Shown here: positions 1 to 50,160 of the stretch, piece after piece
How positions within the stretch are numbered: the first letter of the stretch is position 1
Layout of the letters: each line of letters opens with the position of its first letter
Assembly: GCA_964557535.1 (NCBI GenBank)
Contig: CAZLAD010000004.1
Location: 19,039-83,038, forward strand
Direction of reading: 5' to 3'
Origin: an uncultured Candidatus Saccharibacteria bacterium
GTDB taxonomy: Bacteria; Patescibacteriota; Minisyncoccia; Phycocordibacterales; CSBR16-119
DNA: 64,000 nt
Translations under genes and position numbers: made by a program
Notes under the pieces: generated by a model
What the model was told of the DNA's origin: nothing
What the model saw: only the letters and a program-made list of their open reading frames with translations
Databases searched by the model: none

Positions 1-2419
1 AAGGTTTTTGATTTTTAATTTCTGTTATCTTGTAGAAAATTTTTGGATCTTCTAGATATAACGCATCATTTGGACAGTTGATGATGAAGTTCATGGCAGA
101 CATCGTCATCTGTCGAGTTCGTCCGGTTGTGTTTGGACTAATCTTACTTGGTGCTCCAAGCCATGGCTTGATAATCGTATCCCAGTGCAAAGCTTGGAAA
201 TTGTGAACGGCCTGAGTGGTCGCCCAATCATATGTTCCGTTTACAGTGAGTCCAGCATTCATGTATTCGTTTAGGAATGTCTGGAGAGCTTTGACTTCAC
301 TTTTTGTACTTCCAGTATCGTGATACTGAGTGAATTGAACACAAGCAGTATCAGTTGCACCCAAGACTTCTCCGTCAGATGAAATTCTACTTCCACTAGA
401 TGAAGAAGAACCACCGCCTCCTCCACCGCCGTTATCTTCATCGTCTCCTCCACCGCCATTGTCGTCTTCACAGTCTTCATCGATGGTTAGGGTTTTTACT
501 ACAACGGTCGAATCTTGTCCGTCGTTTGCTGTATAAGTAATCGTGTATACACCATTTGCACCAAAGACTATTGGATCTGGACTAACGACGTAAGTCAATG
601 TAACGGTGTCACCGTCAGCATCACTAGTTGTGACACCACTAGTAAAGTCAAACGATTCTGCTGACCAAAGAATACACTCATCAGCCAAGACAATCGCTGG
701 AGGATTATTGTCGTCTCCGCCCTCATTATCATCGTCGCACTCTTCGTCTAGAGAGTAAGTGTAAGTTGTAGAGAATCTGTCGTCGGCTGTTCCCACGCCA
801 AGGTCAAAATACGCCTTGTCGCCAGTTATCCAAACCAAATCTTCGTGTCCACCAGCTGCTCCCGTTTCCAACTTATTCTGTCCAGTAGCCGAAGTTAAAA
901 CTGTCGGAATACCATTGAAAAATTCAATGTATCCTTCAACGAATTCCTGTCCTGTCCCCTTTGGAAGATGACTTCCGTGAAGTTCTAGAACAATTTTATT
1001 GTCTGCTCGTCTCTTTACTGCAAGTCCAGAAACGTCGGCAAAATTTTCTATATTTTGCATGTCGGCCGGAGAAACTGGGAACCACGCACCGTCCGCAACA
1101 GTATTGATTGATGATCCTAGATAAATAGTATCAGTCAAATCTCCTGCTCCAACATTTGAGTGGGAAGTTACCACGACGCGTGCCCAAACGGCCTGAGATT
1201 CACAAGATGGATTTTCTTCTTCATTATCGTTATTTACAACACGAATTGTTCGAGTCTCCTGATCTGCCGTAAGTCCTTCGGAGTCTTCGACATCGTAAGT
1301 CACGATATAAGTTCCAAGCGTATTACAATCAACTGTTCCCGCGTATTCGATTTCACTTGTGATATCTCCATCCTCAAGATCATCCGCAGTAACTCCGTTT
1401 AAAATGAATGCTTCGTCACAAACAGTTCCAATAAAGACTTCGACAACTTCTGGAACAACTGTTATATCTGGTGGGGTGTTTTTCTTGCCACCGCCGTCGT
1501 CTTCAACACAATTTACACGAACGTCATCTAGAAACATTCCAAATGAATTAGCGTCGCCAAGATCAGCAAAAGTGATTGTGTGTGACGTTGAGTCAGCGGT
1601 GAAATTGTTGGTTTTCTGATACCAGTTTGTATCTGAGTCACCAACGCCGTTAGTCGTTACCGAAAGATCCCAAGGGAAACCATCTATATATAGACCGACC
1701 TTGTTGTCATCCATTCCGTATCCAGGTCGAGCAGAATAGAAGTATGAGATTTCATATTCCTGTCCAGGAACTGTGGTGATAGTTTGAGAGATTCGAGTTG
1801 AGGCAGCTTCGTTTGAGATTGATCCGCCAGGTCCGTCAAAATCAGAATCCAGTTCTAGATACTGTTCACCGGAGTGAGCAGAGTAGATTTGCTGTAGTTC
1901 GGCTTTGGCAGGAGTTTCGTCGCCAGAACCAGCTTGCCACTCAACATCCCAAGCCAAACCTGATGTCCCGTCAGCATAGATATTCCAACCACCAGAAAGT
2001 GTCGGATTTTCAAATCCGCCGTTTTCAAAAAGGTTAATTGAAACGTCACAAGATGGTGCTGGAGTAGGAGTATGTCCGCCACCATTGCCGTCACCAGAAA
2101 CAAGATCAAAAGACTCTGTTTCACTTTCAGAGCTAGTTTCTTCTGTTACTTCTATTTCTGTTTGTTCAACTTCGCCCAGAATTTCTGTTTCTGTTTGCTC
2201 TACCTCAGTCGAGATTTCTGTCTCTGTCTGAGTACCTTCGTCTGTGGTTTCGACTTCTTCAGTAGTTGGTTCTGTAGAAACTTCTACTTCTTCGGTAGTA
2301 TCAACGGCTTCTTGAGCTCTAGCGACTAGAGGCATAAAAGATGTCGTGATAGCGAATTGGAAAATGAAGAATCCATAAAAGACTGTCTTTGAAAGATTCT
2401 TGATCTTGATATTTTTCAT
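1..2419 (-). CDS. Large secreted surface protein, partial (C-terminus beyond left edge). It has a signal peptide, an acidic Thr/Glu-rich linker, a DUF642/CBM-like beta-sandwich, two Ig-like (DUF5011/HYR-like) domains and a C-terminal peptidoglycan-binding domain.
   Basis: Hand translation of the minus strand from the ATG at 2417-2419 gives an uninterrupted frame to position 1 (>=806 aa). The ORF track omits it because there is no in-window stop. The N-terminus MKNIKIKNLSKTVFYGFFIFQFAITTSFMPLVARAQE is signal-peptide-like. The linker is an ETE/QTE repeat. The C-terminal end carries GSTKSEVKALQTFLNEY...GTYDWATTQAVHNFQ, which resembles PG_binding_1. Confidence 0.7.
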   Translation of the reverse strand, partial: MKNIKIKNLSKTVFYGFFIFQFAITTSFMPLVARAQEAVDTTEEVEVSTEPTTEEVETTDEGTQTETEISTEVEQTETEILGEVEQTEIEVTEETSSESETESFDLVSGDGNGGGHTPTPAPSCDVSINLFENGGFENPTLSGGWNIYADGTSGLAWDVEWQAGSGDETPAKAELQQIYSAHSGEQYLELDSDFDGPGGSISNEAASTRISQTITTVPGQEYEISYFYSARPGYGMDDNKVGLYIDGFPWDLSVTTNGVGDSDTNWYQKTNNFTADSTSHTITFADLGDANSFGMFLDDVRVNCVEDDGGGKKNTPPDITVVPEVVEVFIGTVCDEAFILNGVTADDLEDGDITSEIEYAGTVDCNTLGTYIVTYDVEDSEGLTADQETRTIRVVNNDNEEENPSCESQAVWARVVVTSHSNVGAGDLTDTIYLGSSINTVADGAWFPVSPADMQNIENFADVSGLAVKRRADNKIVLELHGSHLPKGTGQEFVEGYIEFFNGIPTVLTSATGQNKLETGAAGGHEDLVWITGDKAYFDLGVGTADDRFSTTYTYSLDEECDDDNEGGDDNNPPAIVLADECILWSAESFDFTSGVTTSDADGDTVTLTYVVSPDPIVFGANGVYTITYTANDGQDSTVVVKTLTIDEDCEDDNGGGGDDEDNGGGGGGGSSSSSGSRISSDGEVLGATDTACVQFTQYHDTGSTKSEVKALQTFLNEYMNAGLTVNGTYDWATTQAVHNFQALHWDTIIKPWLGAPSKISPNTTGRTRQMTMSAMNFIINCPNDALYLEDPKIFYKITEIKNQKP

Positions 2420-2755
2420 AATAAAATATTTTTTAATAATAAAAAATTAAATTAATAAGCTAATTAAACTCTACAATCACAAGACAAGATTTTTAAAAGG
2501 TTTTCAAAACCCTTTGTCTCACCTGGCAATCTTTTTTTTTACAAATTCAAGCGTTAGATACGTTCGAATGTTTATGGCGGGATTATACACCGGCACATTT
2601 GCTTTGTCAAGCGATGCCCCAGAATACTTTGCCAATTTTACTATTTTTGAATTAACTGTCAAAAAGACGCTTTTCTGAAGATTTTAAATTAAAAGACATG
2701 CGCCCCCGGCTGGTGACCGGGGGCGCATCATGATGAGGGGGCATAACTCGCACAA

Positions 2756-3088
2756 CTAGTAGGTTCCTGCCAAATGCGGTCTAGCCTTGTCGATCACCCT
2801 TCTCACCTTCTCGGCACTAAATGGCGAGATGATCTTGTACAGACGGAAGGCCGACACGATGGTGACATCGGAGTACTTCTTTGGCCACCAAGCGGCGTGG
2901 CACATCCTCCAAAGGAAGCTACGCCTCGAGCCATTCCTGTTGCCATATGTCAACTTATGGTCGGATTTGCTCGGCAACACTACCGTTTTGTCGCTGGTTC
3001 TGGCCAAGGGCGCAGACACTGGGATCTTCATTGTTGCGGTGTGCATGAACTTGCGGGTTTTTTGTTTGTGATTGTTGCTGGTCCACAA
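2756..3088 (-). CDS. Hypothetical small protein (about 92-110 aa), GC-richer than its surroundings
   Basis: ORF track 110 aa. Visibly higher GC than flanking DNA. A perfect GC hairpin at 2700-2726 lies immediately 3' of its stop. Internal Met alternatives MHTATMKIPVS and MKIPVS are possible starts. No recognisable family. Confidence 0.35.
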   Translation of the reverse strand: MWTSNNHKQKTRKFMHTATMKIPVSAPLARTSDKTVVLPSKSDHKLTYGNRNGSRRSFLWRMCHAAWWPKKYSDVTIVSAFRLYKIISPFSAEKVRRVIDKARPHLAGTY

Positions 3089-3133
3089 AACACTATATCC
3101 AAGAATTTAATTTTTGTAAACTATCTAAAAGTA

Positions 3134-5008
3134 TTAACACCCCACCAAAATATTGGCATAAGCTGAAGTGGTGATGTACCACCAACCAGTCGAGTGATCG
3201 AGCGTCGGCCAAGGACGAATTATCTGACTGGAATATTTTTCTTGGAATCTTCGAACGGCCCTGTCGGTATCTTCTCCAAAAAATCCATCGACAGTCAAAT
3301 TACTACCGATTTCGTTATTTAAAAATTCCTGCATCTTCATAACCTCTTCTGGATTATTTTTGTTTGATTTCATTCGAAGATACGTTTTAAAGTACGGACA
3401 CGAATCATTTTTATATTCGATACTCAAATAATCTTCGAACATCCCGCCACGCTCATTGTAAAATCTGACATAAATTCTCTTGGCGCCAGCAACACACCCC
3501 ATCGATCCTTTACAGAGATCCCATTCGAGGTTTCTCTTGGTATATTCTCGAAAATAAATTTCTTTGTTGGAAAAATCTGCATTATTAGATATTTCGTAAT
3601 AAGTTATTGTGTATGGGGCCAACACAATCAAATCCACAAACCGAGAGTTTGTTCTTTTGGGATTACCCTCTATCATCACGTTCGGCATTTGAAAACCATA
3701 AATTGTTGATGCATCTGAGAGATTTTCGACGCTCTCATCTTCCTGATCGTAGATAAAGACATCAATTTTGCCGTTCGTGTCGTCCGCCGTCAAATTTGTG
3801 GCACTGGACAAAAATGCAGTATAGCGACTATCCGAGGAAACGGACGATGTCGAGGACGCACCGTTTCCAATCACATCAGAACTATTTTTACTTACAAGCT
3901 CGATAGTATCTGTATTTCTGTCATAAATAAACACATCAGAAACACCATTGGTATCCCCGTCTACTAAATTTGTCGCGTCTGAATAAAATGAAACGTAACG
4001 CCCATCAGGAGAAATCGAAACTTCTGACGATACTCCGTCACCGCCTTCACCATCGTTGTTCACACTCACACGTTCTATTTCTTCGGTATTTCGATCAAAG
4101 ACAAAAATATCAGATTGTCCCTCGATATCACCAGCAACCAAGTTGGTGGCATCAGAGGCGAACGCGATATACCGACCGTCTCCAGAAATGGCTGGGTTAT
4201 AAGAAATATTGTCTTGATCTCCAGCTATTGTTTTACTGACGAGTTCGGTTGTACCAAGCGTGCGATCACGCACATAAATATCTTGAAAAACATTTAGATC
4301 ATCAGCGTGAAGTGAAGACTGCGTGGCAAAAGCGACATATCGTCCATCGGTAGAAATGGCTGGTTCTAGAGACACCGCACTACCTTCTAATTCATCACTA
4401 TCAACACTCACGCGCTCCGTCACCCCAGTTTCTCGATTATGCACAAAAACATCGGCGGCCCCATTGGCGTCGTCATCAACCAAATTCGTCGCTTCGGATC
4501 CAAAAGTCACATACACACCGTCTCCAGAAATTTCAAGATTACTAAAGACGCCATCATCACCTGCTGTCCCATCAGTATGAACACTTACTCTTTCGGTGAC
4601 ACCAGTTTGTCGATCATGAACAAAAACATCCGAAAATCCTTCGACATCTCCCGCGACCAAGTTCGTGGCGCTCGAGTTAAAAGCAACATATCGTCCATCG
4701 GTAGAAATCGAAGGATCAATCGATGCGCCATTTCCAGGCGTCCCGTCAGTGTGAACACTCACGCGTTCTATTTCTTCGGTATTTCGATCGAAGACGAAAA
4801 TGTCAGAGGTGCCAGTATCTCCGGCAATTAAGTTTGTCGCAGTAGAAGCGAAAACAACATACCGTCCATCAGGAGTTATGCGGACGTAAGAGGAATCATT
4901 GTTTGCCTGAACTCCCAGATCGTTTACACTTGCACGTTCAACCGTCCCCGCCACGACGAAAAACGCTGGAATTGAAATAATTGCCAAAAGAAAAAATAGT
5001 GTTCGCAT
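3134..5008 (-). CDS. Secreted beta-propeller repeat protein (TolB/PD40-like repeats, DGRYVAF..ATNLV.GD.NG..DVFV.DR, about 9 copies) with a C-terminal peptidoglycan-binding domain
   Basis: 624-aa ORF. N-terminal hydrophobic signal MRTLFFLLAIISIPAFFVVAG. Regular 40-45-aa PD40-type repeats. C-terminus DGFFGEDTDRAVRRFQEKYS resembles PG_binding_1. Confidence 0.8.
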   Translation of the reverse strand: MRTLFFLLAIISIPAFFVVAGTVERASVNDLGVQANNDSSYVRITPDGRYVVFASTATNLIAGDTGTSDIFVFDRNTEEIERVSVHTDGTPGNGASIDPSISTDGRYVAFNSSATNLVAGDVEGFSDVFVHDRQTGVTERVSVHTDGTAGDDGVFSNLEISGDGVYVTFGSEATNLVDDDANGAADVFVHNRETGVTERVSVDSDELEGSAVSLEPAISTDGRYVAFATQSSLHADDLNVFQDIYVRDRTLGTTELVSKTIAGDQDNISYNPAISGDGRYIAFASDATNLVAGDIEGQSDIFVFDRNTEEIERVSVNNDGEGGDGVSSEVSISPDGRYVSFYSDATNLVDGDTNGVSDVFIYDRNTDTIELVSKNSSDVIGNGASSTSSVSSDSRYTAFLSSATNLTADDTNGKIDVFIYDQEDESVENLSDASTIYGFQMPNVMIEGNPKRTNSRFVDLIVLAPYTITYYEISNNADFSNKEIYFREYTKRNLEWDLCKGSMGCVAGAKRIYVRFYNERGGMFEDYLSIEYKNDSCPYFKTYLRMKSNKNNPEEVMKMQEFLNNEIGSNLTVDGFFGEDTDRAVRRFQEKYSSQIIRPWPTLDHSTGWWYITTSAYANILVGC

Positions 5009-5072
5009 TGCAAATCTATTTTAGCAAAGAAGCGACCTTTGACAGATAAAATATGGGGACAAAAATCTTCGG

Positions 5073-5145
5073 TGGACCCTAGGAGATTCGAACTCCTGAC
5101 CTCCGCTTTGCAAAAGCGGCGCTCTACCAACTAAGCTAAGGGCCC
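5073..5145 (-). tRNA. tRNA-Ala (anticodon TGC)
   Basis: The reverse complement folds as a cloverleaf: acceptor GGGCCCT/AGGGTCC with the diagnostic G3:U70 pair, D-arm GCTT-AGTTGGTAGAGC, anticodon loop TTTGCAA (TGC), T-arm AGGAGTTCGAATCTCCT. Only CC of the CCA end is encoded. Confidence 0.9.
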
Positions 5146-5184
5146 CTCTGCTCGCGAGCAGAGGGGCTAAGGGCCCTCCACTTG

Positions 5185-5439
5185 CTAGCTAATTGAATTC
5201 TTTATTCTCTTCTTAAGCTCTTTGTATCCCGCAGCAAAAGATTTTAGCATGTCTTCACGATGTCGTGCATCAGCTAAAGCCTTGTATGCCTCGTAATAAA
5301 CGAGCTCAAAAGGGGCTTTGTGTTTTGTCGAAAGATTCTTCTTTCCATTGTGTTCAGCAAAACGCCTTTTGAGATCATTTGTATACCCAATATATATCGA
5401 TTCGTCTACCCTGCTCTTTAAAATGTACACGTAAAACAT
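5185..5439 (-). CDS. GIY-YIG nuclease superfamily protein (UPF0213-like)
   Basis: 84 aa. MFYVYILKS...IYIGYTNDLKRRFAEHN is the GIY-YIG motif set. GC hairpin at 5146-5163 lies 3' of the stop. Confidence 0.85.
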   Translation of the reverse strand: MFYVYILKSRVDESIYIGYTNDLKRRFAEHNGKKNLSTKHKAPFELVYYEAYKALADARHREDMLKSFAAGYKELKKRIKNSIS

Positions 5440-5514
5440 AATTTGACAAGCAAACTACCCTAACGTAACGACAGGCAATATTCTATACAATTTTTTCCTT
5501 TTTGCAAAGGTGGT

Positions 5515-5542
5515 TTGACAATTATTCATTTCGGTGTAATGT
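5515..5542 (+). promoter_or_regulatory. Candidate sigma70-type promoter (TTGACA-N16-TAATGT) for the 5583 gene
   Basis: TTGACA at 5515-5520, 16-nt spacer, TAATGT at 5537-5542, about 40 nt upstream of the ATG. Confidence 0.3.
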
Positions 5543-5582
5543 TTTGGACGAACAACAATGTTCACCCTAAAACCTTTACGCC

Positions 5583-5936
5583 ATGAGCATGGAGAACCGC
5601 TTTTTCATCATCACTGAGATCGAGCCACACGGCGCAGAAGCCGTAGAGACCCTCGCAGAAGTCCAGGACTTCCTCGACAATGAACATTACCCTGAGGTCG
5701 AGGAAGCCGGTGGTCCGCGATTACTCGCCAAGATTGTGGTGAAAGGTGGTCCAAGCGATGCCGACGACACCATTACCTACGTACAAGAGATCCAGGGCGG
5801 CATCGAAGGATGGGACAAGTACAACAACGGAAAGCGCCCAGGGCTCAAAGCCAAGTTCAAGGCGAAGCTGGGAGAACGCATGCAAAGAGGAGACTTCAGC
5901 ATGAAACAGAAAGCCTCCAAAGGCATCGTGCTCTAG
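5583..5936 (+). CDS. Hypothetical acidic protein, GC-richer
   Basis: 117-aa ORF with coding-like composition. Followed by the bidirectional terminator at 5962-5981. No family recognised. Confidence 0.5.
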   Translation: MSMENRFFIITEIEPHGAEAVETLAEVQDFLDNEHYPEVEEAGGPRLLAKIVVKGGPSDADDTITYVQEIQGGIEGWDKYNNGKRPGLKAKFKAKLGERMQRGDFSMKQKASKGIVL

Positions 5937-5961
5937 TCAACAACACTGCGATAATTGAAAA

Positions 5962-5995
5962 GGCCCGCCGCATGGCGGGCCTTCTCATTTTATTT
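5962..5995. terminator. Bidirectional intrinsic terminator (GGCCCGCC-GCAT-GGCGGGCC plus T-run) between convergent genes
   Basis: Perfect 8-bp GC stem flanked by an A-run (left) and a T-run (right). Confidence 0.7.
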
Positions 5996-6550
5996 TAATT
6001 CTTTGTATCGAAAACACGTCGTCAGGTGGTCATTTACCATCCCAATTCCTTGCATAAAGGCGTAAGTCACCGTCGAACCGCAAAATTTAAATCCGCGGGA
6101 TTTCATATCAGCGGCAATTTTGTCTGACAGCGGTGTTGTCGCGCGCATATGCGACGAGTGTTTCAATTTATTTTGAATCGGTTTGTTATCGACGAATCCC
6201 CAAATGTATTTTGAAAATGTTCCAAACTCCTCGCGAACTTTTATAAAGGCTTTTGCATTTGCAACCGTGCCGGCAATTTTCAAACGATTACGTATAATTC
6301 CTGGGTCTTTCAAAAGTTTCGCCTCTCTCGCTTTTGTATACTTCGCAATTTTTTGCCAATCAAAATTATCAAAGGCTTTGGCAAAATTTTCTCTTTTATG
6401 TAAAACGATTCTCCACGAAAGCCCAGCCTGAAAAGTATCTAGCACGATGGCACGAAAAATCTTTTTATCATCGCGCTCTGGTTTGCCCCACTCCGTGTCG
6501 TGGTATTTCTGCATCAACACATCTTCCTCTGGCCACGCACAACGTTTCAT
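5990..6550 (-). CDS. tag: DNA-3-methyladenine glycosylase I
   Basis: 186 aa. WGKP...DDKKIF..L.TFQAGLSW.IVL.KRENF..AF..FD and the C-terminal Zn-site cysteines and histidine are typical of Tag. Confidence 0.9.
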   Translation of the reverse strand: MKRCAWPEEDVLMQKYHDTEWGKPERDDKKIFRAIVLDTFQAGLSWRIVLHKRENFAKAFDNFDWQKIAKYTKAREAKLLKDPGIIRNRLKIAGTVANAKAFIKVREEFGTFSKYIWGFVDNKPIQNKLKHSSHMRATTPLSDKIAADMKSRGFKFCGSTVTYAFMQGIGMVNDHLTTCFRYKELK

Positions 6551-35641: not shown

Positions 35642-38600
35642 TTATTGTTTCAAGTCAATATCGAGTCCAAGTCCGCGCAAGTAGTTGAGCATCACCTTAA
35701 ACGATGCCGGAATATTTGGCTCGCGGAGTTTCTGACCCTTGATAATCGAATCAAACGCCTGACTTCGACCCATGATGTCGTCAGATTTGATAGTTAACAT
35801 TTCACGAAGTGCATGAGCCGCACCGTATCCTTCGAGAGCCCAAACTTCCATTTCTCCGAATCGTTGACCTCCTGACTGAGCCTTACCTCCAAGTGGTTGT
35901 TGGGTGATGAGTGAGTATGGTCCGATGGCGCGCGCATGGACTTTGTCTTCCACCATGTGGTGAAGTTTCAAGATGTACATATAACCGACAGCAATTTCTT
36001 GTTCGAAAGCTTCGCCGGTTCGTCCATCAAAAAGTTTCATTGTACCGGTGTCGCTTAGTCCTGCTTTGACTAGCTCTTGTTTGATTTCGTCGTTACTTGC
36101 TCCACCAAACAACGGAACGATAGCCTGGTAATTAAGCGTGTGAGCCGCCATACCAAGATGCATTTCCAAAATTTGTCCCAAGTTCATACGTGATGGAACA
36201 CCAAGCGGAGTGAGGATTACGTCAACTGGTGTACCGTCAGCCATGTATGGCATTTCTTCTTCTGGAAGGATGGTCGAGATGACGCCCTTGTTTCCGTGTC
36301 GACCGGCAAGCTTGTCTCCGACCGAAATGTTTCGGACCTGCGCAACTTCGACAATGATTTTCTTGATGATTCCTGATTCGAGCTGATGACCCTTGTCGCG
36401 TGAGAAAACTTTCACGCCGATTACGCGTCCTTCGTTTCCTGGACTTACGCGCATAGAGGTGTCTTTGACGTCACGAGCTTTTTCGGCAAAGATTGATCGG
36501 AGAAGTCTTTCTTCTGGAGTAAGTTCTGTTTCGCCCTTTGGCGTAATTTTACCGACAAGAATGTCGTTTTCACGAACTTCGGCACCAATACGCACGATTC
36601 CTTCTTCGTCGAGGTCTTTTAGTTTTGCTTCACCGACGTTTGGGATGTCAGGAGTGGTTTGTTCAGGTCCAAGTTTTGTATCACGAACAACGCAAGTAAA
36701 TTCTTCAACATAAATAGAAGTGAAGACAGAATTCTTTACCAAACGTTCTGACAAGATGATGGCGTCTTCGTAGTTTCGTCCATCCCATGACATAAATGCG
36801 ACTAGGGCGTTTTGACCAATCGCGGCTTGACCTTCGGCTGTTGACGGAGCATCGGCCAAGACGTCGCCCTTTTTGACTTTGTCACCCATATTTACCGATG
36901 GTCGCTGTCGCATTAGAGAGAATTTGTTGGTGCGAACAGTATGGATAAGTTCGTAAGTTTTTGGCTTGCCTGATGCTGGAGTTACGACGACTTTTTTGGC
37001 ATCCACATAAGTAACTTCGCCAGACTCTTCGGCAATAACCAGTCGTCCTGAATCACGCGCAATTACTTCTTCGACACCAGTTCCGACAAGCGGTGCCATA
37101 GGGATGACACACGGCACAGCTTGCTTTTGCATGTTACTTCCCATGAGTGCGCGGTTGGCGTCATCGTGTTCGAGAAACGGAATCATCGAGGTACCAAGCG
37201 AAAATGCTTGGTTTGTAGCGACATCGATAAAATCAATTTCTTTTTTGGAAATTAGTCCTGGAGAAGTTTTGACTCGCGCTTCGACAAGTTCTGGAATAAT
37301 ATTTCCAGCCTCATCTCGAGGAACACCTCCGTGAGCGATGTTGTACTTTTCTTCTTCCAAGGCGTTCATGTATACAATTTCACCTGTGATCTTGCCGTTT
37401 TTTACCCGAACATACGGAGTTTCGATAATGCCGAATTCGTTTATCTTTGCATATGTAGAAAGGTGAAGAACCAGACCGATGTTTGGACCTTCTGGAGTGT
37501 GAATCGGGCAAACGCGACCGTAGTGACTGGTGTGAACGTCGCGAACTTCAAGTCCAGCTCTTTCACGAGTAAGTCCTCCAGGTCCGAGCGCAGAAAGGAT
37601 GCGCAAGTGTTCGAGTTCGGAAATAACATTTTCCTGATCCATGAATTGTGAAAGTTGGTTCGTGGTGAAAAATTCTTTGACACGAGCCTGAAGTGGTCTT
37701 TGATTGATGACGGTGACAGGCGCGGCGACATCTGACTCGATTGTCGACATGCGGTCCTGAATATTTCGCTTGATCTGAGTCATACCCACGCGGAATTTTT
37801 GTTGGAGAAGTTCGCCAACGTATTTTACGCGTCGTCGGCCCAAGTGATCGATGTCATCAGCCTTGGCGTTTTTGTCATTGTTTAAATCAAAAATGTTTTT
37901 GACGATTGTGACGACGTCGTCGGCATTTAGAGTTTGGCGCTCGAGTTCAGCTTTTTCCATTGATTTCTCAAATCGCTGATTGAATCGGTGTCGGCCAACT
38001 TTTGAGAAGTCATATCGTTCTGTGGTAAAAATACTATCAACAAATTCCTTGGCGTTTTCTGCCGTCGCCATATCACCATCTCGAAGACGTTTATAGATAT
38101 CGACGTAGGCTTCTTCGACAGTTTTGGCATGATCTTTCTCAAGCATCACGGCAACCAATTTCTCCATTTCAGGATTGCCCTTGAAAGCTTTCAAGATTTT
38201 CTCATTCGTATCAAGTCCCATGACACGGAGCAAACTAGTGACTGGGAATTTTCGTTTCTTGTCGATGCGGGCGAAAATCGTGTCGTCTTTGTCTGTCTCG
38301 ATCTCAATCCAGACACCGCGATTTGGGATTATTTTTGCGCCAAATTTACGTCGACCTTTTAGATCAACGGCAGTAAAAAATACTCCTGATGAACGTGTAA
38401 GCTGAGCGACGATGACACGTTCGACACCATTTATGATGAATGTACCGTTACTTGTCATAAGCGGGAAATCTGTCATGAAAATTTCCTGCTCTTTCTTGGA
38501 ACCATTCAATTTGTTGAGGAGTTTGGCGCGAACTTTTAGAGGCGCTTCGTAGGAGAGTTTGTTTTCCTTGGCGTAGTGAGGATCGAATTTTGGTTCACCT

Positions 38601-38809
38601 AATTCGTAGGCGTCGAATCGTAGTTCGAATTTTTTACCCGAGTAATCTTCGATTGGAGAAAATTCTTTAAAAACTTCTTTTAGTCCATCGGTAATCAACC
38701 ACTTGAAAGAATTCAACTGGGTTTCGAGCATGTTTGGATATGCAACCAACGGCTCTTTATACTTCGCAAAATACTTCTTCTCTCGCTTCAACGTCTTTGT
38801 TTTTGCCAT
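35642..38809 (-). CDS. rpoB: DNA-directed RNA polymerase subunit beta (compact, 1055 aa)
   Basis: Conserved beta regions throughout (GPNIGLV..., rifampicin-cluster region, C-terminal clamp). Confidence 0.97.
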   Translation of the reverse strand: MAKTKTLKREKKYFAKYKEPLVAYPNMLETQLNSFKWLITDGLKEVFKEFSPIEDYSGKKFELRFDAYELGEPKFDPHYAKENKLSYEAPLKVRAKLLNKLNGSKKEQEIFMTDFPLMTSNGTFIINGVERVIVAQLTRSSGVFFTAVDLKGRRKFGAKIIPNRGVWIEIETDKDDTIFARIDKKRKFPVTSLLRVMGLDTNEKILKAFKGNPEMEKLVAVMLEKDHAKTVEEAYVDIYKRLRDGDMATAENAKEFVDSIFTTERYDFSKVGRHRFNQRFEKSMEKAELERQTLNADDVVTIVKNIFDLNNDKNAKADDIDHLGRRRVKYVGELLQQKFRVGMTQIKRNIQDRMSTIESDVAAPVTVINQRPLQARVKEFFTTNQLSQFMDQENVISELEHLRILSALGPGGLTRERAGLEVRDVHTSHYGRVCPIHTPEGPNIGLVLHLSTYAKINEFGIIETPYVRVKNGKITGEIVYMNALEEEKYNIAHGGVPRDEAGNIIPELVEARVKTSPGLISKKEIDFIDVATNQAFSLGTSMIPFLEHDDANRALMGSNMQKQAVPCVIPMAPLVGTGVEEVIARDSGRLVIAEESGEVTYVDAKKVVVTPASGKPKTYELIHTVRTNKFSLMRQRPSVNMGDKVKKGDVLADAPSTAEGQAAIGQNALVAFMSWDGRNYEDAIILSERLVKNSVFTSIYVEEFTCVVRDTKLGPEQTTPDIPNVGEAKLKDLDEEGIVRIGAEVRENDILVGKITPKGETELTPEERLLRSIFAEKARDVKDTSMRVSPGNEGRVIGVKVFSRDKGHQLESGIIKKIIVEVAQVRNISVGDKLAGRHGNKGVISTILPEEEMPYMADGTPVDVILTPLGVPSRMNLGQILEMHLGMAAHTLNYQAIVPLFGGASNDEIKQELVKAGLSDTGTMKLFDGRTGEAFEQEIAVGYMYILKLHHMVEDKVHARAIGPYSLITQQPLGGKAQSGGQRFGEMEVWALEGYGAAHALREMLTIKSDDIMGRSQAFDSIIKGQKLREPNIPASFKVMLNYLRGLGLDIDLKQ

Positions 38810-41076: not shown

Positions 41077-43767
41077 TTATTGATTAAATAGTCTAATTAA
41101 TTCATCAAAGTTTTTTGCCAGATTTTCTTCATATTCTTCTTGTTGTACATATAAAGCCCTATATATAACTCGACTTTGTCGATCATTCACATCCGCACAC
41201 CACTGCTTCAATCGTTCAAACTTGATTTTGTCGTTTTCTTCTTCGCGTCCCTTTGTTTCTATGATGTACACCTGCTTGTCATCAACCTTCACAAAGAAGT
41301 CAGGATAATAAGTCGCAATGAACCCTTCTGCATTTTTATACTCAATACGAAGAGCGGTTGCTTCTTTGTTTTGAAAGTTCTTTGCAAATGAAATGATATC
41401 ATCGCAACCTTCAAGGAAGTTTGCAAATTCAAGCTCAAAGTTACTATCACCCACAATGTGGTTAAAGACAGTCTTTTTAGGATGCGCTAAGAACGCCTTA
41501 TCATTAACAACAAACGGACGTGCTTCACTAATTTTGATATAGTTTTTTATTTCAGTATCTCCTATATCTTGTACGGTCAATTCATTGATATGTTTTTTGA
41601 ATACATCCTTGATGAGTTTTATATACTCAACTTCAGACAAATTGCGGAGCACATTGAGGTCTGCAAGGTCCACAGATTGCTCGAACATATTGTTTGCAAT
41701 AAAATCTTTCACCTTACCGAAAAGAATGTCGTAACAGCTAAATAAGCGCATTTCGCGCATTATTGCTTGAGTAAAGAACCCAACTACACTCTGATAATTT
41801 GGCTCAATGTCACCATTCAAAATGGTAGTGTGATGAACCGATTCAGCAACCACATCTTTGAAGACAATCTCTCGTTTTTCTTGCTCGGAGAATGTCTTTA
41901 TTTTTACCTTCTCGTTTCCGAAAGTAGAAACGTCTAGGTTTGCAAGATTTTTGTATTCTCGTTGTATACGAGCTGTCATTACAGGGAGCTCAATATCAAG
42001 CTTCTCAATGTCTTTCTTTTCGTTTTCCTTATCAACTTCAATGACCATCGGTGATATAGGTTTTGAACCAGTTCCCATCAATCGCTTCTCAAGGAGCACG
42101 CCTTCACCCTTGATACTTTCAACAAAATCCATAAAGGCAGGAGTGCCAATCACGCTCACATATTCATCAATATCATCTCTCCCGAAATACATTCTTCGCA
42201 AACCCCGCCCAAGTGTTTGCTCAGGAAGGATTTTACTATCAGAAGCGTACGGACGAAGCCCTACAATAGTGGTCACATTTTTCACATCCCAACCCTCCTT
42301 GAGCATCATTACTGAAACAATGGCTTTATACGGACTTTCCCAGCTATCGATTTCATTTGATTCTTTTCGAAGTTTATCAAGCTCATCTTTATTTTTTGCT
42401 GTTACACTTTCTGATATTTCTCCTTTCTGGTTTGTATGAATAGTAAGGACAGCGCCTTTAAGTTCTGGATAGTTCATCTCCAAATAATCTGCAACATCAT
42501 CACAGTTTTTGGTGTCATCAGTCATTATAAAAAGAAGTGATTTCTTTCCAGTTGGTTCAAGTCGCTTGAAAGTTTTTCTCCATTCTTCAACTCCAAGGTT
42601 GATATGGTCTCTCCATTTTTCCGTAAAGACTACACTTTGACCTTCTTTGAGTTTTCCCCGACTCGCTTCATCAGGTACAACTGGCTGTTTTACTACTCGT
42701 TGGTGAATTGCTTCAACCAAAGGATAATCAGAAATTGTTTGAACAAAAATTGAGCCTTTACTGTTTTTTGGAGTAGCGGTAACATCAAGCTGAAGTGAAA
42801 GCCCTCCACCTTTTTGTTTGAGTTTGTTATCAATATCACGAATAGATTTGAGCCACGCATTTTCTTCGTGAATATGATGAGCCTCGTCATTGATAACAAT
42901 AAGTTCATCAATATCTCTGACCACCATCCCTAAATCAACCGTACCTTCGTTTGTCTTTGTTACAGGTTTATCGCCAAGGAAGTATTCTGAACTATCTTCA
43001 TCTTCAGCACTATAATCTTTTACATCACTTTCAAATACTCTGTGGATGTTGGTAAGAAATATGTTCCCAGTATCAGAAACGTTCTTAAGATCATCTTGGA
43101 GGTGTAGTGTAATCTGAAAATCGTCCTGCCAGTTTTGACCCATATAACCATTATCAGGAAGAACAGGGTCTTGAAAGAATATCTTGTTGCCTTCAAAGTC
43201 ATTCTTGATACGCTCAAACACGATAACGTTTGGAGCAATGAGTAAGAAGTTCTTTGCTAGATTAGAGCCTTCTTCGTATAGTTCATGGAAATATGCCCAA
43301 GCGACAACAAGGCTCATTACCTTGGTTTTACCAGCTCCTGTGGCCATTTTAACAACAAATCGAAGCCACTCTTCAGTAAACATTTGAGCACTTAAAATCC
43401 CACTTGAATTGTATCTCATTAGATGGTGTTTGTCTCTTACTTTAGCAACCTCATAGAGCCACACAACAGTCTCAATTGCTTCTCTTTGAGAGAAATAATA
43501 TCGGAAATTATAGGAAAAACCGTCCTGATTGTAGAGGATGTGTTCTTCCTTGAACCACCACGTCAAAAGGGCTTTTGAGGTCTCACTTGCTCCTTCATAG
43601 TTATTATCCCGCCACGATTTAACTTGTCTTCTAAGTTCAGCGACCAGAGGAGGAATTAATCTCTCATAATCAGCTGTATTTCTTAAATCCTCAGTAGCAG
43701 GAAACCACCTGATTTCAGGGTTGAGAATTGCATATGGGTCTTTTGGAAAATCTTTGTGTAGTGCCAT
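41077..43767 (-). CDS. res: Type III restriction enzyme Res subunit (SF2 helicase + C-terminal PD-(D/E)xK nuclease)
   Basis: 896 aa. Walker A TGAGKT, DEAHH box (INDEAHHI), motif VI QTLGRGLRR, C-terminal YYPDFFVKV...ETKGRE nuclease core. Confidence 0.9.
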   Translation of the reverse strand: MALHKDFPKDPYAILNPEIRWFPATEDLRNTADYERLIPPLVAELRRQVKSWRDNNYEGASETSKALLTWWFKEEHILYNQDGFSYNFRYYFSQREAIETVVWLYEVAKVRDKHHLMRYNSSGILSAQMFTEEWLRFVVKMATGAGKTKVMSLVVAWAYFHELYEEGSNLAKNFLLIAPNVIVFERIKNDFEGNKIFFQDPVLPDNGYMGQNWQDDFQITLHLQDDLKNVSDTGNIFLTNIHRVFESDVKDYSAEDEDSSEYFLGDKPVTKTNEGTVDLGMVVRDIDELIVINDEAHHIHEENAWLKSIRDIDNKLKQKGGGLSLQLDVTATPKNSKGSIFVQTISDYPLVEAIHQRVVKQPVVPDEASRGKLKEGQSVVFTEKWRDHINLGVEEWRKTFKRLEPTGKKSLLFIMTDDTKNCDDVADYLEMNYPELKGAVLTIHTNQKGEISESVTAKNKDELDKLRKESNEIDSWESPYKAIVSVMMLKEGWDVKNVTTIVGLRPYASDSKILPEQTLGRGLRRMYFGRDDIDEYVSVIGTPAFMDFVESIKGEGVLLEKRLMGTGSKPISPMVIEVDKENEKKDIEKLDIELPVMTARIQREYKNLANLDVSTFGNEKVKIKTFSEQEKREIVFKDVVAESVHHTTILNGDIEPNYQSVVGFFTQAIMREMRLFSCYDILFGKVKDFIANNMFEQSVDLADLNVLRNLSEVEYIKLIKDVFKKHINELTVQDIGDTEIKNYIKISEARPFVVNDKAFLAHPKKTVFNHIVGDSNFELEFANFLEGCDDIISFAKNFQNKEATALRIEYKNAEGFIATYYPDFFVKVDDKQVYIIETKGREEENDKIKFERLKQWCADVNDRQSRVIYRALYVQQEEYEENLAKNFDELIRLFNQ

Positions 43768-43771
43768 AAAA

Positions 43772-44725
43772 TTAAAACGGATTTTCGGCGAATAATTCTT
43801 GTTTTCTTTTTAAAACCTGTTCATTAACAGCAAATCCTTTACTTAATAATTCCTCTCCTAACCAATGATAACCAGATATTTCTTTGAATTGATTATTAAC
43901 AGTTGATTCAATATAAAAATGCTCCCAATCTTCCAACTGAAGTTTTCCATTTTTAAACAATTCATTAAAAAATGTTTTACCTGAACTAGACTCAATAATC
44001 TGATTATACATACCACCATTTTTAAGAGAGTTAACAAGTATTTTTTTCTGGTTTTCTATACTTATTGATTCTAAATTTTTTTCTAAAAACTTAAGCGGCG
44101 CCTTCGCAGCCTCAAAACTTGGTATGGTTGGCAAGCTATCAATTAATTTTGCAATTAGAAAATCCTTGTCATCATTAGATAAGCTAATTTCCCCAGAATA
44201 AAATTTAGAAAAATCTGTTGGGGAGATATATGTATTTCTATGTTCTTCTTGTAATTTTTGGAAAATTACACATATTTCTCTTAAGAAATTTACTATGTCA
44301 TTTTCTTGATTAGCTAGAGTTGGATCACAAACATGGCCAGCAGTATGACGATCTTGTTTTAAGCTTTTTAATTTTTTTAAAAAATTACTATCGATGGGAT
44401 AAAGAATGTTTAGAAAATTTATAACCTCATCATCATCGAGCTGGTTATATGCATACAAATTTTTTTTATCATATTTTGCTATATCATATTTTTCAGCCTT
44501 AAAAATAGTGTTCCATTTTTGAGTAAAAACATCTTCATCGATTATATACCGTACCTGTTGTATCTTTTCATAAACAAAAAGCATAAAAAGTTTCCAAAAT
44601 AAAATTACAGAAAAATCAAAAATCTTGTTTTCTAGTGAGCCATCAAGCTGGCTACCGTAATTAGAATAGTTAATTATCAATCTTGGCAAATTTTCTATTT
44701 TCTGTTTAAAGTCTTCGTTAATCAT
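43772..44725 (-). CDS. Hypothetical protein embedded between mod and res; candidate HEPN-like (Rx4H) domain protein. The Abi_2/DUF4145-like assignment is tentative.
   Basis: 317-aa ORF. Its ATG overlaps the mod stop (ATGA at 44722-44725) and its stop lies 4 nt before the res start. The only motif I can recognise is LKQDRHTAGH (R-x4-H). It is the most AT-rich gene in the window. Confidence 0.6.
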   Translation of the reverse strand: MINEDFKQKIENLPRLIINYSNYGSQLDGSLENKIFDFSVILFWKLFMLFVYEKIQQVRYIIDEDVFTQKWNTIFKAEKYDIAKYDKKNLYAYNQLDDDEVINFLNILYPIDSNFLKKLKSLKQDRHTAGHVCDPTLANQENDIVNFLREICVIFQKLQEEHRNTYISPTDFSKFYSGEISLSNDDKDFLIAKLIDSLPTIPSFEAAKAPLKFLEKNLESISIENQKKILVNSLKNGGMYNQIIESSSGKTFFNELFKNGKLQLEDWEHFYIESTVNNQFKEISGYHWLGEELLSKGFAVNEQVLKRKQELFAENPF

Positions 44726-46836
44726 AACTTTACATCAATTACTCTGGTAGTGTCGTTTCCGAATATGTCTACGACCTTTATTGCAATCTTGTAGTCTCCT
44801 TTGGGAAGCTCTTTGGGAGCAGAGACCAGTTCAAGATTTCTATTCTTCTTAGTACGGAATGTTTGCCATTCGTTATCGAAGATATAGTCTCCAGTCCAGA
44901 CTTCTTTCTCTTCACCATCCTCAATAACCTTGATGATTTCCTTACGGTCCGTAAAGTTATAATCAACCGCCCAGTAATCAATCCAGTCACTCCATTTCTT
45001 TGTGAGTTGCTCCGGTGGATTACTATTCCCTTCTTTATCAGTGGTTACTTTCCAGATTTGTCCTTGATCTACAATAATTTTTGTTTTATTTTTTTGACCT
45101 GTCAAATCCTCTACTACACTATCTAAAACATTTTGTGAGTAAAATACAGAGAAATCAGTGAGCTCAATTGAAAGCTCTTTCATATTTCCACGTCCAGAAA
45201 TAATTGGTTTGATGTCGATATATGCAACATCATAGAAGTTCACGTGACCACGCTCTACAGCTCGTTTATCGAATACTTCACGAGGAATAATCTTGAAAGC
45301 AACATCAATACCTTCGTCAGCGTATTCACTGAAGTTCATTCCCATTTCGTAGTCAAAGCCGAGAACATCAATCTTAGTGAGATTTTTGCTCTTACATTCA
45401 TCAACAATCTCACGAATAAACTTTGAAGATACAGGGAGGTTGATTGGACCCACCGCAACCAAACGGTCACGCTTTTTACCTACAATATGAGCGAAGCTTT
45501 CTACGGCTTCTGCTTTGTATGCAGAAAGAATAAGTTTGATAAAATCTTTCTCTTTTCGTTCTGCTTGTTTTGCTTTTTCTTCAGCTCGCAAGTCATCGTT
45601 GGTAGTGAGGAAGCTTTCTCGTTCATATTTACCGATGTTCAAAATCTCAAAAGCACGGAAGTCTTTTCCAGCTTTTTTGAGTTCACGCTGAACACCCACC
45701 ATTCGCTTTCGTGATGTATGAATACCAAACTTTCCAAGGTCTGTACCAATCCACTTACGACCAAGCTTTTCTGCAACAGCTAAAGTTGTACCTGAGCCAC
45801 AGAAGAAATCAGCAACTAAATCACCTTGATTAGAAGATGCACTGATAATTCGTTCAAGAAATGCTTCAGGCTTTTGTGTTGGATACTTTACTGCTTCATC
45901 GTGACTAGATACTACAATGTTGAACTCAAAAACATCTGTTGCAGGTTTTCCTTGTTCATTCATATAGGTGTTATAGACCCTACCGTCTGACATTCTGTTT
46001 TCTTTGTACCTACGACCATTTTCATCAACTTTATTGAAACGAGCGAGAGTTGCTTCAGCAAACTCTTCAAACTGCTGATTGAATTGATAATTTTCAGATT
46101 TTGAATAAAAGAAAACAGTATCGTGCTTTCTTGCAAAAAAACGAGTTGAGCTTGCACCTCCGCTATATTTCCAAATAATTTCATTTCTGAAATTATCCTT
46201 ACCAAAAATCTCATCAAGAACCAATCTTATATGTCCTGAAAGTCTCCAGTCACAATGAACATAAATACTTCCATCTTCAGCAAGTAATGAGTGCATCAGC
46301 TTGATACGCTCATAAATCATCGCAATAAAACTATCTGCACCTTTACCCCAAGTGTCTCTATATGCGATTTCTTCAATTACAGATGGTTTTTTAGTGAAGC
46401 TCTCGGCATCTCCACCATCACCAATTTCTATATCCATTGAGAAGTCAGCCCCAACGTCAAACGGTGGGTCGATATAGATGAGCTTGAGCCCACCTTGAGC
46501 CTCAATCTCTTTACGCATAGGACCATTCTTGAGGGATGAGAGGATGAGTTTGTTATCTCCCCAAATGAGCTTATTGGTCCAACCAGTTATTTGTTTACCA
46601 GAGAAATCAAAGAGAGTTCCTTTATCTCCAAACTCTTTACCTTCACGAGGTTCATCAATCTGCTCGATTACTTGGAATGGAAGAACTACGTTAGTGACTT
46701 CGTTAGACTTTCCATTCCAAACAAGCTCAACTTCACGGTCATCTTTGAAGAGCAGGAAGCGATATTTCTCTGGGAGAGGTTTACCAGCTTCTAGGTATTT
46801 TATGATGTCTCGTTTTTCTGAATCCGTAAGTTTCAT
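44722..46836 (-). CDS. mod: Type III R-M Mod subunit (beta-class N6-adenine methyltransferase with a long C-terminal extension)
   Basis: 704 aa. DPPF (IYIDPPFDVG) precedes the AdoMet motif FFCGSGTT, which is the beta-class order. Confidence 0.9.
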   Translation of the reverse strand: MKLTDSEKRDIIKYLEAGKPLPEKYRFLLFKDDREVELVWNGKSNEVTNVVLPFQVIEQIDEPREGKEFGDKGTLFDFSGKQITGWTNKLIWGDNKLILSSLKNGPMRKEIEAQGGLKLIYIDPPFDVGADFSMDIEIGDGGDAESFTKKPSVIEEIAYRDTWGKGADSFIAMIYERIKLMHSLLAEDGSIYVHCDWRLSGHIRLVLDEIFGKDNFRNEIIWKYSGGASSTRFFARKHDTVFFYSKSENYQFNQQFEEFAEATLARFNKVDENGRRYKENRMSDGRVYNTYMNEQGKPATDVFEFNIVVSSHDEAVKYPTQKPEAFLERIISASSNQGDLVADFFCGSGTTLAVAEKLGRKWIGTDLGKFGIHTSRKRMVGVQRELKKAGKDFRAFEILNIGKYERESFLTTNDDLRAEEKAKQAERKEKDFIKLILSAYKAEAVESFAHIVGKKRDRLVAVGPINLPVSSKFIREIVDECKSKNLTKIDVLGFDYEMGMNFSEYADEGIDVAFKIIPREVFDKRAVERGHVNFYDVAYIDIKPIISGRGNMKELSIELTDFSVFYSQNVLDSVVEDLTGQKNKTKIIVDQGQIWKVTTDKEGNSNPPEQLTKKWSDWIDYWAVDYNFTDRKEIIKVIEDGEEKEVWTGDYIFDNEWQTFRTKKNRNLELVSAPKELPKGDYKIAIKVVDIFGNDTTRVIDVKL

Positions 46837-46883
46837 TACTTAGATAATGCCTTAAATGGGTGGTTTTTACAAGAAACGAAAAA

Positions 46884-46907
46884 CCCGGGAGCGCACGCGC
46901 TCCCGGG
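46884..46907. repeat. Perfect hairpin CCCGGGAGCGC-ac-GCGCTCCCGGG in the mod upstream region
   Basis: 11-bp GC stem preceded by AAACGAAAAA. Confidence 0.6.
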
Positions 46908-47208
46908 GCGGATGGCTGGATTTTTCCCGGTCCTGTTCTGAGCGTACAAGGACGATCAGAACGTAGGCTCTCTTATTCCTTTTCGCTCGCCACTACTCAG
47001 GGGGTCCGTCGTCGCCTTGGAATGCATTACTGCCCCAACTAGCTGTTGGCCACCGTCCTAAACGCTTGTTAGTCAAAATCTGAATTACTTTCTTTTTAAA
47101 TTTCTCACATCTTCAATATTGTTATTTCTCCGCATATGCGAACTCATAACAATACAGTTTTATTTATTCTTTTTGTACTCCTCCAAACTTTTTAAATGAA
47201 ACGAAAAA

Positions 47209-47239
47209 GCCCCCGCCGGTTTTGCAACCTAGCGGGGAC
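47209..47239 (-). terminator. Terminator for the 47266..47751 gene: interrupted stem CCCCGC..GGTT-GCAA-AACC..GCGGGG (GNRA tetraloop) plus T-run on the minus strand
   Basis: The minus-strand reading gives a stem followed by CTTTTTCGTTTC. Confidence 0.55.
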
Positions 47240-47265
47240 TTGAACAAAGACCGAAAGTGGTGGAA

Positions 47266-47827: not shown

Positions 47828-48493
47828 TTATTTCCCCTTCTTGTACTCCTCCAAATCTTTGTGGTTGCCGGAGAGGAAGACTTTTGGGACTTTGTGTCTT
47901 TTGCCCTTATGTTCGTAAATTTCTGGGCGGGTATACATTTCCCCGCTTGAGACGCGTGATTCTTCGAGTGATTCGATTTTCCCAAGCACTCCTGGGATCT
48001 GACGTGAGACGGTGTCGATCACAATCATCGCTGGGATTTCTCCGCCGGTCAGGACATAATCGCCGACAGACAATTCTTGCGCTTTTGTGATTTTCTTCAC
48101 GCGCGCGTCGATGCCCTCGTAGCGTCCACAAATCAAAATCAAATCCGTGTATTTTTTCGCCGAAGTTTTCGCGTATTCTGTCGTGAGTTTTTTACCCCCC
48201 GGCGCAAAGATGATTGTCTTTGGCTTTTCTAAATTCTTGCTCGCTTTTTCCCACGCGCGAATAATCGGATCAGCGATCATCACCATCCCCGGACCTCCGC
48301 CGTAAGGTCTGTCGTCGATTTTCGACGAAATATTTCCATCTGGCCAGACTTTGCGGAGTTTGCCACGCACAAAATCCCGCGGGTTATAAAACTTCACTTT
48401 TATCTTCTTCTCCTTGATCGCCCGCGCCAAAATAGACTCGGATAAATAAGCCTCTACAACGCTTGGAAATAATGTAATTACATGAAAATTCAT
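47828..48493 (-). CDS. trmD: tRNA (guanine37-N1)-methyltransferase
   Basis: 221 aa. ITLFP...GPGMVM, LICGRYEGIDARV, GEIPA SPOUT-knot motifs. Confidence 0.95.
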   Translation of the reverse strand: MNFHVITLFPSVVEAYLSESILARAIKEKKIKVKFYNPRDFVRGKLRKVWPDGNISSKIDDRPYGGGPGMVMIADPIIRAWEKASKNLEKPKTIIFAPGGKKLTTEYAKTSAKKYTDLILICGRYEGIDARVKKITKAQELSVGDYVLTGGEIPAMIVIDTVSRQIPGVLGKIESLEESRVSSGEMYTRPEIYEHKGKRHKVPKVFLSGNHKDLEEYKKGK

Positions 48494-49808: not shown

Positions 49809-50111
49809 TTATTTTGCTTCGGCTTCTTTCTTGGCCTGCTTGGTGCGTTTTGGCAAGACGTTCTTTTTCTTGGCGTCGACGATTTTTTGATCTACGAGAA
49901 AATTGTGAATCGTTCCCGATGCCTGCGCGCCCATTTTCAGCCAGTACTTTATACGGTCGGCTTTCAATTCTACGAGACCAGCCTTTGGATTGTAATTGCC
50001 AAGAATTTCCTGGAATTTACCACTCTGAGCAGAATCTGTGGACTCAGTCAAAACAACCCGAAATGCCGGGGTATTTACGCGTCCAGTTCTTTGTAATCTG
50101 ATTTTTAACAT
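49809..50111 (-). CDS. rpsP: 30S ribosomal protein S16 (start at MLKIRLQR)
   Basis: MLKIRLQRTGRVNTPAFRVVLTES is the S16 N-terminus. The ORF track extends 12 codons upstream. Confidence 0.95.
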   Translation of the reverse strand: MLKIRLQRTGRVNTPAFRVVLTESTDSAQSGKFQEILGNYNPKAGLVELKADRIKYWLKMGAQASGTIHNFLVDQKIVDAKKKNVLPKRTKQAKKEAEAK

Positions 50112-50160
50112 GTGATGGATATTAGCAGATATATGTTGAGGCGTCAATAAAAATGGATTG

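Follow-up and report, generated by a model that had tools for sequence, protein, structure and literature searches.

A HEPN protein family missing from current profile libraries is encoded within a Type III restriction-modification operon of an uncultured Candidatus Saccharibacteria bacterium

We analyzed a 64,000-nt stretch of the genome of an uncultured Candidatus Saccharibacteria bacterium (contig CAZLAD010000004.1, assembly GCA_964557535.1; hereafter the window), in which a Type III restriction-modification (R-M) operon on the minus strand carries an additional gene, here called X, between its methyltransferase gene mod and its restriction gene res. An earlier reading made from the DNA letters without database searches (the sequence-only reading) had described these as three tightly packed genes and X as encoding a HEPN-like protein. 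The open reading frame (ORF) calls agreed exactly with its coordinates and lengths: the 704-aa mod lies at 44722-46836, the 317-aa X at 43772-44725, and the 896-aa res at 41077-43767. Both junctions it had reported were read directly in the sequence. At the mod/X junction (...GTTATGATTAAC), the TGA stop codon of mod shares bases with the ATG of X in an ATGA overlap (44722-44725), a signature of translational coupling. At the X/res junction (...TTTTAA-TTTT-ATGGCA), a 4-nt TTTT spacer (43768-43771) separates the stop codon of X (43772-43774) from the ATG of res at 43767. X is a two-domain protein that founds a HEPN family missing from current profile libraries.

The operon has a GC content of 36.6%, compared with 43.8% for the remainder of the window. 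The AT-richness noticed earlier was therefore real, but the range of 30-37% given for it calls for refinement, with values of 38.8% for mod, 38.1% for res, and 27.9% for X alone (21% GC at third codon positions). In relatives, the operon was located at different chromosomal sites.

The genes mod and res constitute a complete Type III R-M system, with an N6-adenine methyltransferase and a co-oriented helicase/nuclease. Mod matched PF01555 (E = 5.7e-49) and the PADLOC family MTase_III (E = 1.9e-117), and its DPPF motif (residue 123) precedes FCGSG (residue 345), which is the motif order of the beta class, as had been proposed. The weak Ig-like domain at Mod residues ~641-704 (44722-44916; DUF4625, E = 3.7e-4; Big_13, E = 0.09) is an unusual end for a Type III methylase, and the last ~25 residues of Mod are well conserved across the lineage. 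Res, also as proposed, combines a superfamily 2 DEAH helicase with a C-terminal PD-(D/E)xK nuclease. Its motifs are GAGKT (residue 144), DEAH (294), TAT (330), QTLGR (517), and PD...ExK (822-839), and it matched ResIII (E = 2e-17), RE_endonuc (E = 6.7e-5), and PADLOC REase_III (E = 4.3e-19), as well as the NCBIfam model BPTD_3080 with a score below that model's cut-off (E = 4.3e-80). The operon departs from the plain two-gene mod-res layout without an extra subunit, as X sits between the two genes.

The N-terminal domain of X (44222-44725) contains exactly one R-x4-H (Rx4H) motif, RHTAGH at residues 126-131 (44333-44350), which is the single signature seen in the sequence-only reading. The motif lies at the C-terminal end of helix 3 (residues 113-130); the full-length structure model of X had a predicted local distance difference test score (pLDDT) of 80. 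Alignments of 43, 20, and 23 sequences showed R126 and H131 to be invariant or at least 90% conserved, and together with V132 they were the best-conserved positions among the 43 aligned members, some of which share ~20% identity. The family consensus of the motif is R-[N/D/H]-x-x-A-H-V, the residue after the arginine being N, D, H, or K. Further conserved positions are Y52 and E53 in the preceding long helix and, in the C-terminal half, Q242 (within YNQ), W267, and F270. E53, in helix 2 (residues 36-61), is at least 90% conserved, in the context E-x3-Q instead of the more usual E-x3-[KR]. HEPN proteins are defined by a core of four helices, the second and third of which are separated by an insert, by an Rx4-6H motif that ends helix 3 and extends into the loop leading to helix 4, by a polar residue that follows the arginine, and by an acidic residue in helix 2 (PMC3710099, Anantharaman et al. 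2013). X shows each of these four features, and we regard its HEPN fold and intact catalytic motif as established, with the helix-3 motif, its polar follower, and the acidic residue of helix 2 bearing out the HEPN-like character suggested earlier. X is predicted to be an RNase.

Current profile libraries did not detect the family. X gave no match in Pfam at E ≤ 1 except a noise match to Med21, no PADLOC family at E ≤ 1, and nothing in NCBIfam or PHROGs. When all 43 relatives were searched against Pfam (E ≤ 0.1), no HEPN family was found among the 25 of 39 matching families listed, and only one PIN_12 fusion appeared. The Pfam searches suggested earlier were all negative, so that X is not a member of Abi_2 (PF07751) or DUF4145 (PF13643), to whose motif its own had been likened, nor of Swt1 or RiboL-PSP. 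We do not file X under any Pfam HEPN family because no family hidden Markov model (HMM) gave a significant match. As a single sequence, X gave only noise against PDB sequences; the family profile had a marginal best match (E = 0.044, X residues 18-71) to an entry named 'Dandelion-hepn', for which no paper was located. A Foldseek search of the full-length model against the PDB returned nothing below E = 0.8. Structural matches of X include the HEPN domain of AbiA (second-best) and the HEPN toxins of toxin-antitoxin systems 7ae2, 8xdj, and 5yep.

Residues 169-317 of X form a separate, all-helical C-terminal module (43775-44221). PIN_12-type proteins matched this module of X only, with X residues 190-279 aligning to residues 261-361 of P0041 at 32% identity (E = 1e-10). 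The module was found on PIN_12/PIN_8-type N-terminal domains in P0041 and P0049-P0052 (loci L009-L011 and L123), and it is therefore mobile between two RNase-type heads. The genes of the PIN-fused relatives adjoin Mrr_cat/PDDEXK_3 (Mrr/PD-(D/E)xK) genes or a DUF4268 gene.

In half of the X family, the C-terminus consists of acidic residues followed by I-P-F; such members include P0006, P0008, P0011, P0013-16, P0018-22, P0025, and P0041. A terminal [ILVN]-P-[FLW] was present in 21 of 43 family members and in none of the 71 unrelated proteins encoded between mod and res in related operons (see below), so that a docking tail common to X and these other proteins was rejected. In the window, X ends in AENPF (43775-43789), a degenerate copy of the family terminus ...[D/E]-D-I-P-F. 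The C-terminal docking tip of SSB, the protein that binds single-stranded DNA, is DDDIPF, the same hexapeptide as the acidic tail of the X family (PMC5872125). The IPF-type tail may mimic that of SSB or may be autoinhibitory.

Five close relatives of X were found among 5.8 billion clustered proteins, and an exhaustive profile search among 1.84 billion gave 44 representatives of the family. Most of the X-related loci are short metagenomic contigs. A tblastn search of X against annotated plasmids and phages gave no match, and a search with the close-family alignment was likewise negative for viral contigs and for GTDB genome contigs; the broad family alignments were too diverged for locus scanning.

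The mod-X-res arrangement recurred in independent contigs (L001, L002, L005/6, and L012/13), with X identities of 35-61%, and more distant members lay in operons of three R-M types. In Type III-like contexts, X stood between a methyltransferase and ResIII (L027/28, L022). Type II contexts were a Dam-type methyltransferase, X, and DpnII (L023, L024); a methyltransferase, MjaI, and X (L030); and a methyltransferase, an unassigned gene, X, a second methyltransferase, and a MutH-like gene (L014). Among the Type I contexts, X followed HsdS in L018, lay between HsdS and HsdR downstream of HsdM and an unassigned gene in L031/32, stood between HsdS and an AAA_15 ATPase in L042, and came after HsdR and a fused M/S gene in L019. 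Other neighborhoods consisted of a ResIII-type helicase followed by X (L033/34) and of X between a GmrSD-like and a Cas4-like gene (L041). In most R-M cases, X comes right after the methylase or specificity gene, and the 4-nt overlap of the upstream gene with X was seen again in L012/L013, L031, and L018. X is not a known Type III accessory protein, it has a HEPN fold with its catalytic dyad, and it co-occurs with R-M genes elsewhere; on these points, which the sequence-only reading had left to be checked, its proposal held.

Locus L033 encodes a radical-SAM protein (371-2179), a 989-aa ResIII-type helicase (2227-5196), and the X homologue (5207-6148), with no recognisable methylase on the contig, and may be a different, non-classical restriction-like system.

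A search of GTDB species genomes with the Res of the window gave more than 587 loci, overwhelmingly in metagenome-assembled genomes of Patescibacteria, or the Candidate Phyla Radiation (CPR), a distribution that fits a CPR origin of the window. The mod/res junction was analyzed in the best-scoring 80 of these loci (L043-L122; 62-88% Res identity), which are not a random sample, with genes called by a simple ORF finder. Mod lay upstream of Res in 70 of the 80. The two genes abutted in 22-23 of these 70 operons, mostly at distances of 3-10 nt, and in 46 the junction was filled by one to four co-directional ORFs across a gap of 0.4-2.4 kb. The cargo always began right after the stop codon of mod and ended right before the start codon of res. 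The earlier statement that X has no counterpart in canonical mod-res operons was thus correct for the 22-23 abutting relatives, but an occupied junction is the majority state in this lineage.

The 71 proteins encoded in this slot fell into 45 sequence clusters that are unrelated to one another and in many cases without annotation. No X-family member was found among them by tblastn and HMM searches. By Pfam and PADLOC, the cargo included Schlafen/AlbA_2 proteins with HATPase_c_4 (8), NYN (6), KTSC (4), and DUF3800 (4) proteins, and ABC-type ATPases (AAA_15/AAA_21) similar to AriA, PtuA, GajA, and Old (5, of which one has an OLD TOPRIM domain). A KAP NTPase, a trypsin-like protease, WYL, and Bro-N were also present. 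Known HEPN families were represented by DUF4145 (2) and by HEPN_Apea, HepT-like, and HEPN-like_int (1 each). These HEPN proteins thus occupy the same slot as X in operons whose Res is 62-88% identical; unlike X, they are recognized by Pfam and lack its C-terminal module and tail. Comparison of the X N- and C-domain profiles with the 71 slot proteins, including DUF4145, ApeA, and HepT, by hhalign gave no signal (probability ≤3.2%), a result that says little either way since single-sequence templates are weak.

A backbone near-identical to that of the window (L043; Mod 86%, Res 88%) had an empty slot, and the near-identical backbones of L086 and L044 carried cargo other than X. X also diverges faster than its neighbors, being 57-61% identical where Res is 78-81% identical. 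Together with the separate base composition of X, the slot pattern and faster divergence indicate that X is an exchangeable cassette and not a Type III subunit; the existence of sister operons with abutting mod and res likewise marks it as cargo. The 3' end of mod was slightly more conserved than the whole gene (82 vs 75%), as was the 5' end of res (75 vs 66.5%). As special recombination anchors these ends were rejected because the difference is so small, and we make no claim of a specific recombination site.

In L004, a DUF3800 gene (1539-2321) directly follows X, which shows that cargo genes can stack; DUF3800 slot genes also occur in L077, L081, and others (4 loci). Slot proteins of ~70 aa (L056:4930-5142, L063:4930-5139, L074:6119-6331, and L095:4799-5011) always precede an NYN-domain gene and are probably the KTSC-domain set, a 70-aa cluster of 4. 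They showed a faint, non-significant resemblance to the conserved Y-N-Q-V-L-x-A-S motif of X (hhalign E ~0.014-0.023, probability ≤3.2%; 3 of the 4 among the top matches).

HEPN genes in R-M operons are a known kind. A survey of 2013 already listed at least 16 HEPN clades with links to R-M operons, and R-M-embedded HEPN RNases were predicted then to be PrrC-like back-up defences (PMC3710099). Because of these clades and of the known HEPN families in the same slot, the kind of arrangement seen here is not new, and the uncharacterised composite system proposed in the sequence-only reading proved less singular than it had seemed, although its central protein does belong to a new family. X is a new HEPN family in that it is undetected by current libraries, has no detectable sequence similarity to catalogued HEPN families, carries a new C-terminal module, and occurs with R-M systems of Types I, II, and III. 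In the open-access literature that we searched, we found no account of a Type III lineage with variable cargo between mod and res, which is not proof of absence.

Among known systems, PrrC/EcoPrrI and the R-M-linked HEPN clades share with X a HEPN gene inside an R-M operon, an intact Rx4-6H, and a predicted latent RNase behind restriction (PMC3710099). In PrrC, which belongs to Type IC hsd loci, the HEPN domain is C-terminal and preceded by an ABC-ATPase at the N-terminus, whereas X has an N-terminal HEPN domain, a novel helical C-terminal module, and a Type III locus. X therefore has the embedded effector of a PrrC-type guardian without the fused ABC-ATPase domain, and it lacks an NTPase domain and is no homologue of PrrC/RloC. 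PrrC and Ronin (HsdMS with RonA) are examples of effectors that a methylase complex of an R-M system restrains, and the Type III system EcoR22I triggers cell death on Ocr (bioRxiv 10.1101/2023.04.06.535777). Ronin, with a methylase complex that cages a death effector, and EcoR22I, as a Type III system coupled to programmed cell death, resemble the system proposed here for X. However, RonA is a membrane peptide of 61 aa, EcoR22I works without an accessory gene, and neither system has a HEPN protein. The AbiA HEPN domain (PDB 8oz7; PMC11077055) differs from that of X in being C-terminal, fused to a reverse-transcriptase-like polymerase, and equipped with Rx6H in place of Rx4H.

By analogy with the PrrC-EcoPrrI model, we consider it probable, with moderate confidence, that X is a latent HEPN RNase serving as an abortive-infection back-up to the Type III system. 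HEPN nucleases dimerise through the HEPN domain. As the effector of a two-layer defence operon, X would form a metal-independent RNase site by such dimerisation. In uninfected cells, this site would be silenced by association with Mod/Res or by the C-terminal helical module and acidic tail of X itself. A phage that defeats or overloads restriction would release X, and the released protein may cut tRNA, mRNA, or rRNA, so that translation stops and the infection is aborted. X would act in this way as an exchangeable cassette, with sister slots empty or occupied by other predicted effectors. In favor of the proposal are the conserved catalytic residues, the recurrence of X within R-M operons, its 4-nt overlaps with upstream M or S genes in several lineages, its cassette nature, and the precedents of PrrC, Ronin, and the tRNA-cleaving DARNA described below.

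Several observations weigh against this proposal. The promoter scan gave nothing above chance and fewer sites than shuffled sequence, so that it is the gene packing only that points to a single mod-X-res transcript. No sequence profile ties X to a known HEPN family, whether by Pfam on 43 members, by hhalign, or by the PDB profile match at E = 0.044. For AbiA, no RNase activity was observed in vitro despite an intact Rx6H (PMC11077055). No R-M neighbor was seen at five to six loci of the X family (L026/29, L035-L038), and PIN-type proteins encoded outside R-M operons carry the C-terminal module as well (L009); because of these two findings, direct control by an R-M complex is not required by the data.

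The latter findings would suit an autonomous abortive-infection RNase of the DARNA/PD-T7-3 or AbiD/F kind, whose C-terminal module senses a phage cue (nucleic acid or protein) and for which the operon provides expression and co-mobilisation only. This explanation is possible, and we regard it as the foremost alternative while considering it well short of probable. DARNA/PD-T7-3 begins, like X, with a HEPN domain of ~160 aa that contains Rx4H (R117/H122; R126/H131 in X), and its C-terminal domain is likewise all-alpha and non-catalytic; it is an abortive-infection tRNase that cuts tRNA when its C-terminal domain binds single-stranded DNA (ssDNA) presented by phage SSB (bioRxiv 10.64898/2026.02.22.705581). 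DARNA is a stand-alone gene of 456 aa with a Pds5-like ssDNA-binding C-terminal domain of ~300 aa, whereas X is operon-embedded and its C-terminal domain has ~150 aa. The resemblance is architectural only, and PADLOC gave no PD-T7-3 match for X at E ≤ 1. Besides the family members without R-M neighbors and the PIN-type carriers of the module in non-R-M or Type IV-like contexts, autonomy would be consistent with the known or predicted self-acting systems in the slot (OLD/Gabija-like ATPases, Schlafen, and NYN) and with the association of the family with three R-M types of different mechanism, which speaks against a single specific docking partner. The position of X within operons, usually after M or S and before R and often with a 4-nt overlap, across Type I, II, and III systems, is however tighter than ordinary island clustering.

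A non-catalytic role is improbable. X could be a restriction accessory whose HEPN domain is a dimerisation or nucleic-acid-binding scaffold that modulates Mod/Res assembly, the timing of Res, or target choice. The AbiA HEPN domain, the second-best structural match, is structural and enzymatically inactive in vitro, a scaffold role has also been reported for MtlR, and X is placed where translational coupling could set the Mod:X:Res stoichiometry. Non-catalytic HEPN domains, however, typically lose Rx4-6H (PMC3710099), and this motif is the most conserved feature of the X family. Moreover, about a third of sister operons have an empty slot and others hold unrelated proteins, so that X is not a needed subunit. 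The conserved motif and the cargo-free operons also make it very improbable that X is a cassette-stabilising toxin (post-segregational killing or addiction), a long-lived RNase freed from a labile inhibitor when the operon is lost, for although HEPN toxins are among its structural matches and the operon is horizontally mobile by its varied sites and low GC, no small antitoxin-like or MNT gene is adjacent, R-M systems are already addictive by themselves, and the other slot cargo resembles defence genes and not toxin-antitoxin pairs.

A broader combination can be put forward tentatively, and we think it rather unlikely to hold in full. The mod/res junction of this lineage would be a dedicated slot for interchangeable guard effectors translationally coupled to and controlled by Mod/Res, and X would be a new two-module RNase whose C-terminal module and SSB-tip-like ...DDIPF tail decoy or sense proteins docking on SSB tails (for instance, replication or recombination factors of phages), tying fork-protein sensing to HEPN activation. 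If true, a Type III R-M system would serve bacteria with reduced genomes as a general platform for second-line immunity.

The immune repertoire of CPR bacteria is poorly known, and, to our knowledge, almost no R-M-embedded HEPN RNase outside Type I loci has been tested. X is small and has clear catalytic residues to mutate, and near-identical Type III backbones whose slot is empty, holds X, or holds other cargo provide natural controls. The slot may be more useful than X itself: about two-thirds of the sampled operons of this abundant lineage carry cargo, which amounts to a discovery list of CPR defence effectors and a direct route to test R-M complexes as general guards of embedded effectors.

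Upstream of the operon, a strong intrinsic-terminator hairpin on the minus strand (46884-46907; 10 pairs, 9 of them G-C, with a T-run) lies 48 nt from the mod ATG. As this terminator marks the 5' boundary of the transcription unit, the operon promoter would lie in 46837-46883, and a weak promoter-like pair, TTGTAA-N17-CATTAT, is found directly before the mod ATG. The 430-nt intergenic stretch at 46837-47265 is bounded by this hairpin and a second strong terminator (47204-47251) and has a GC-rich core of ~200 nt; it contained no Rfam family, tRNA, transfer-messenger RNA, or credible ORF, and its folding z-score was -1.0. The flanks of the operon (35642-38809, 47828-48493, and 49809-50147) consist of core housekeeping genes (a short 1055-aa rpoB, trmD, and rpsP).

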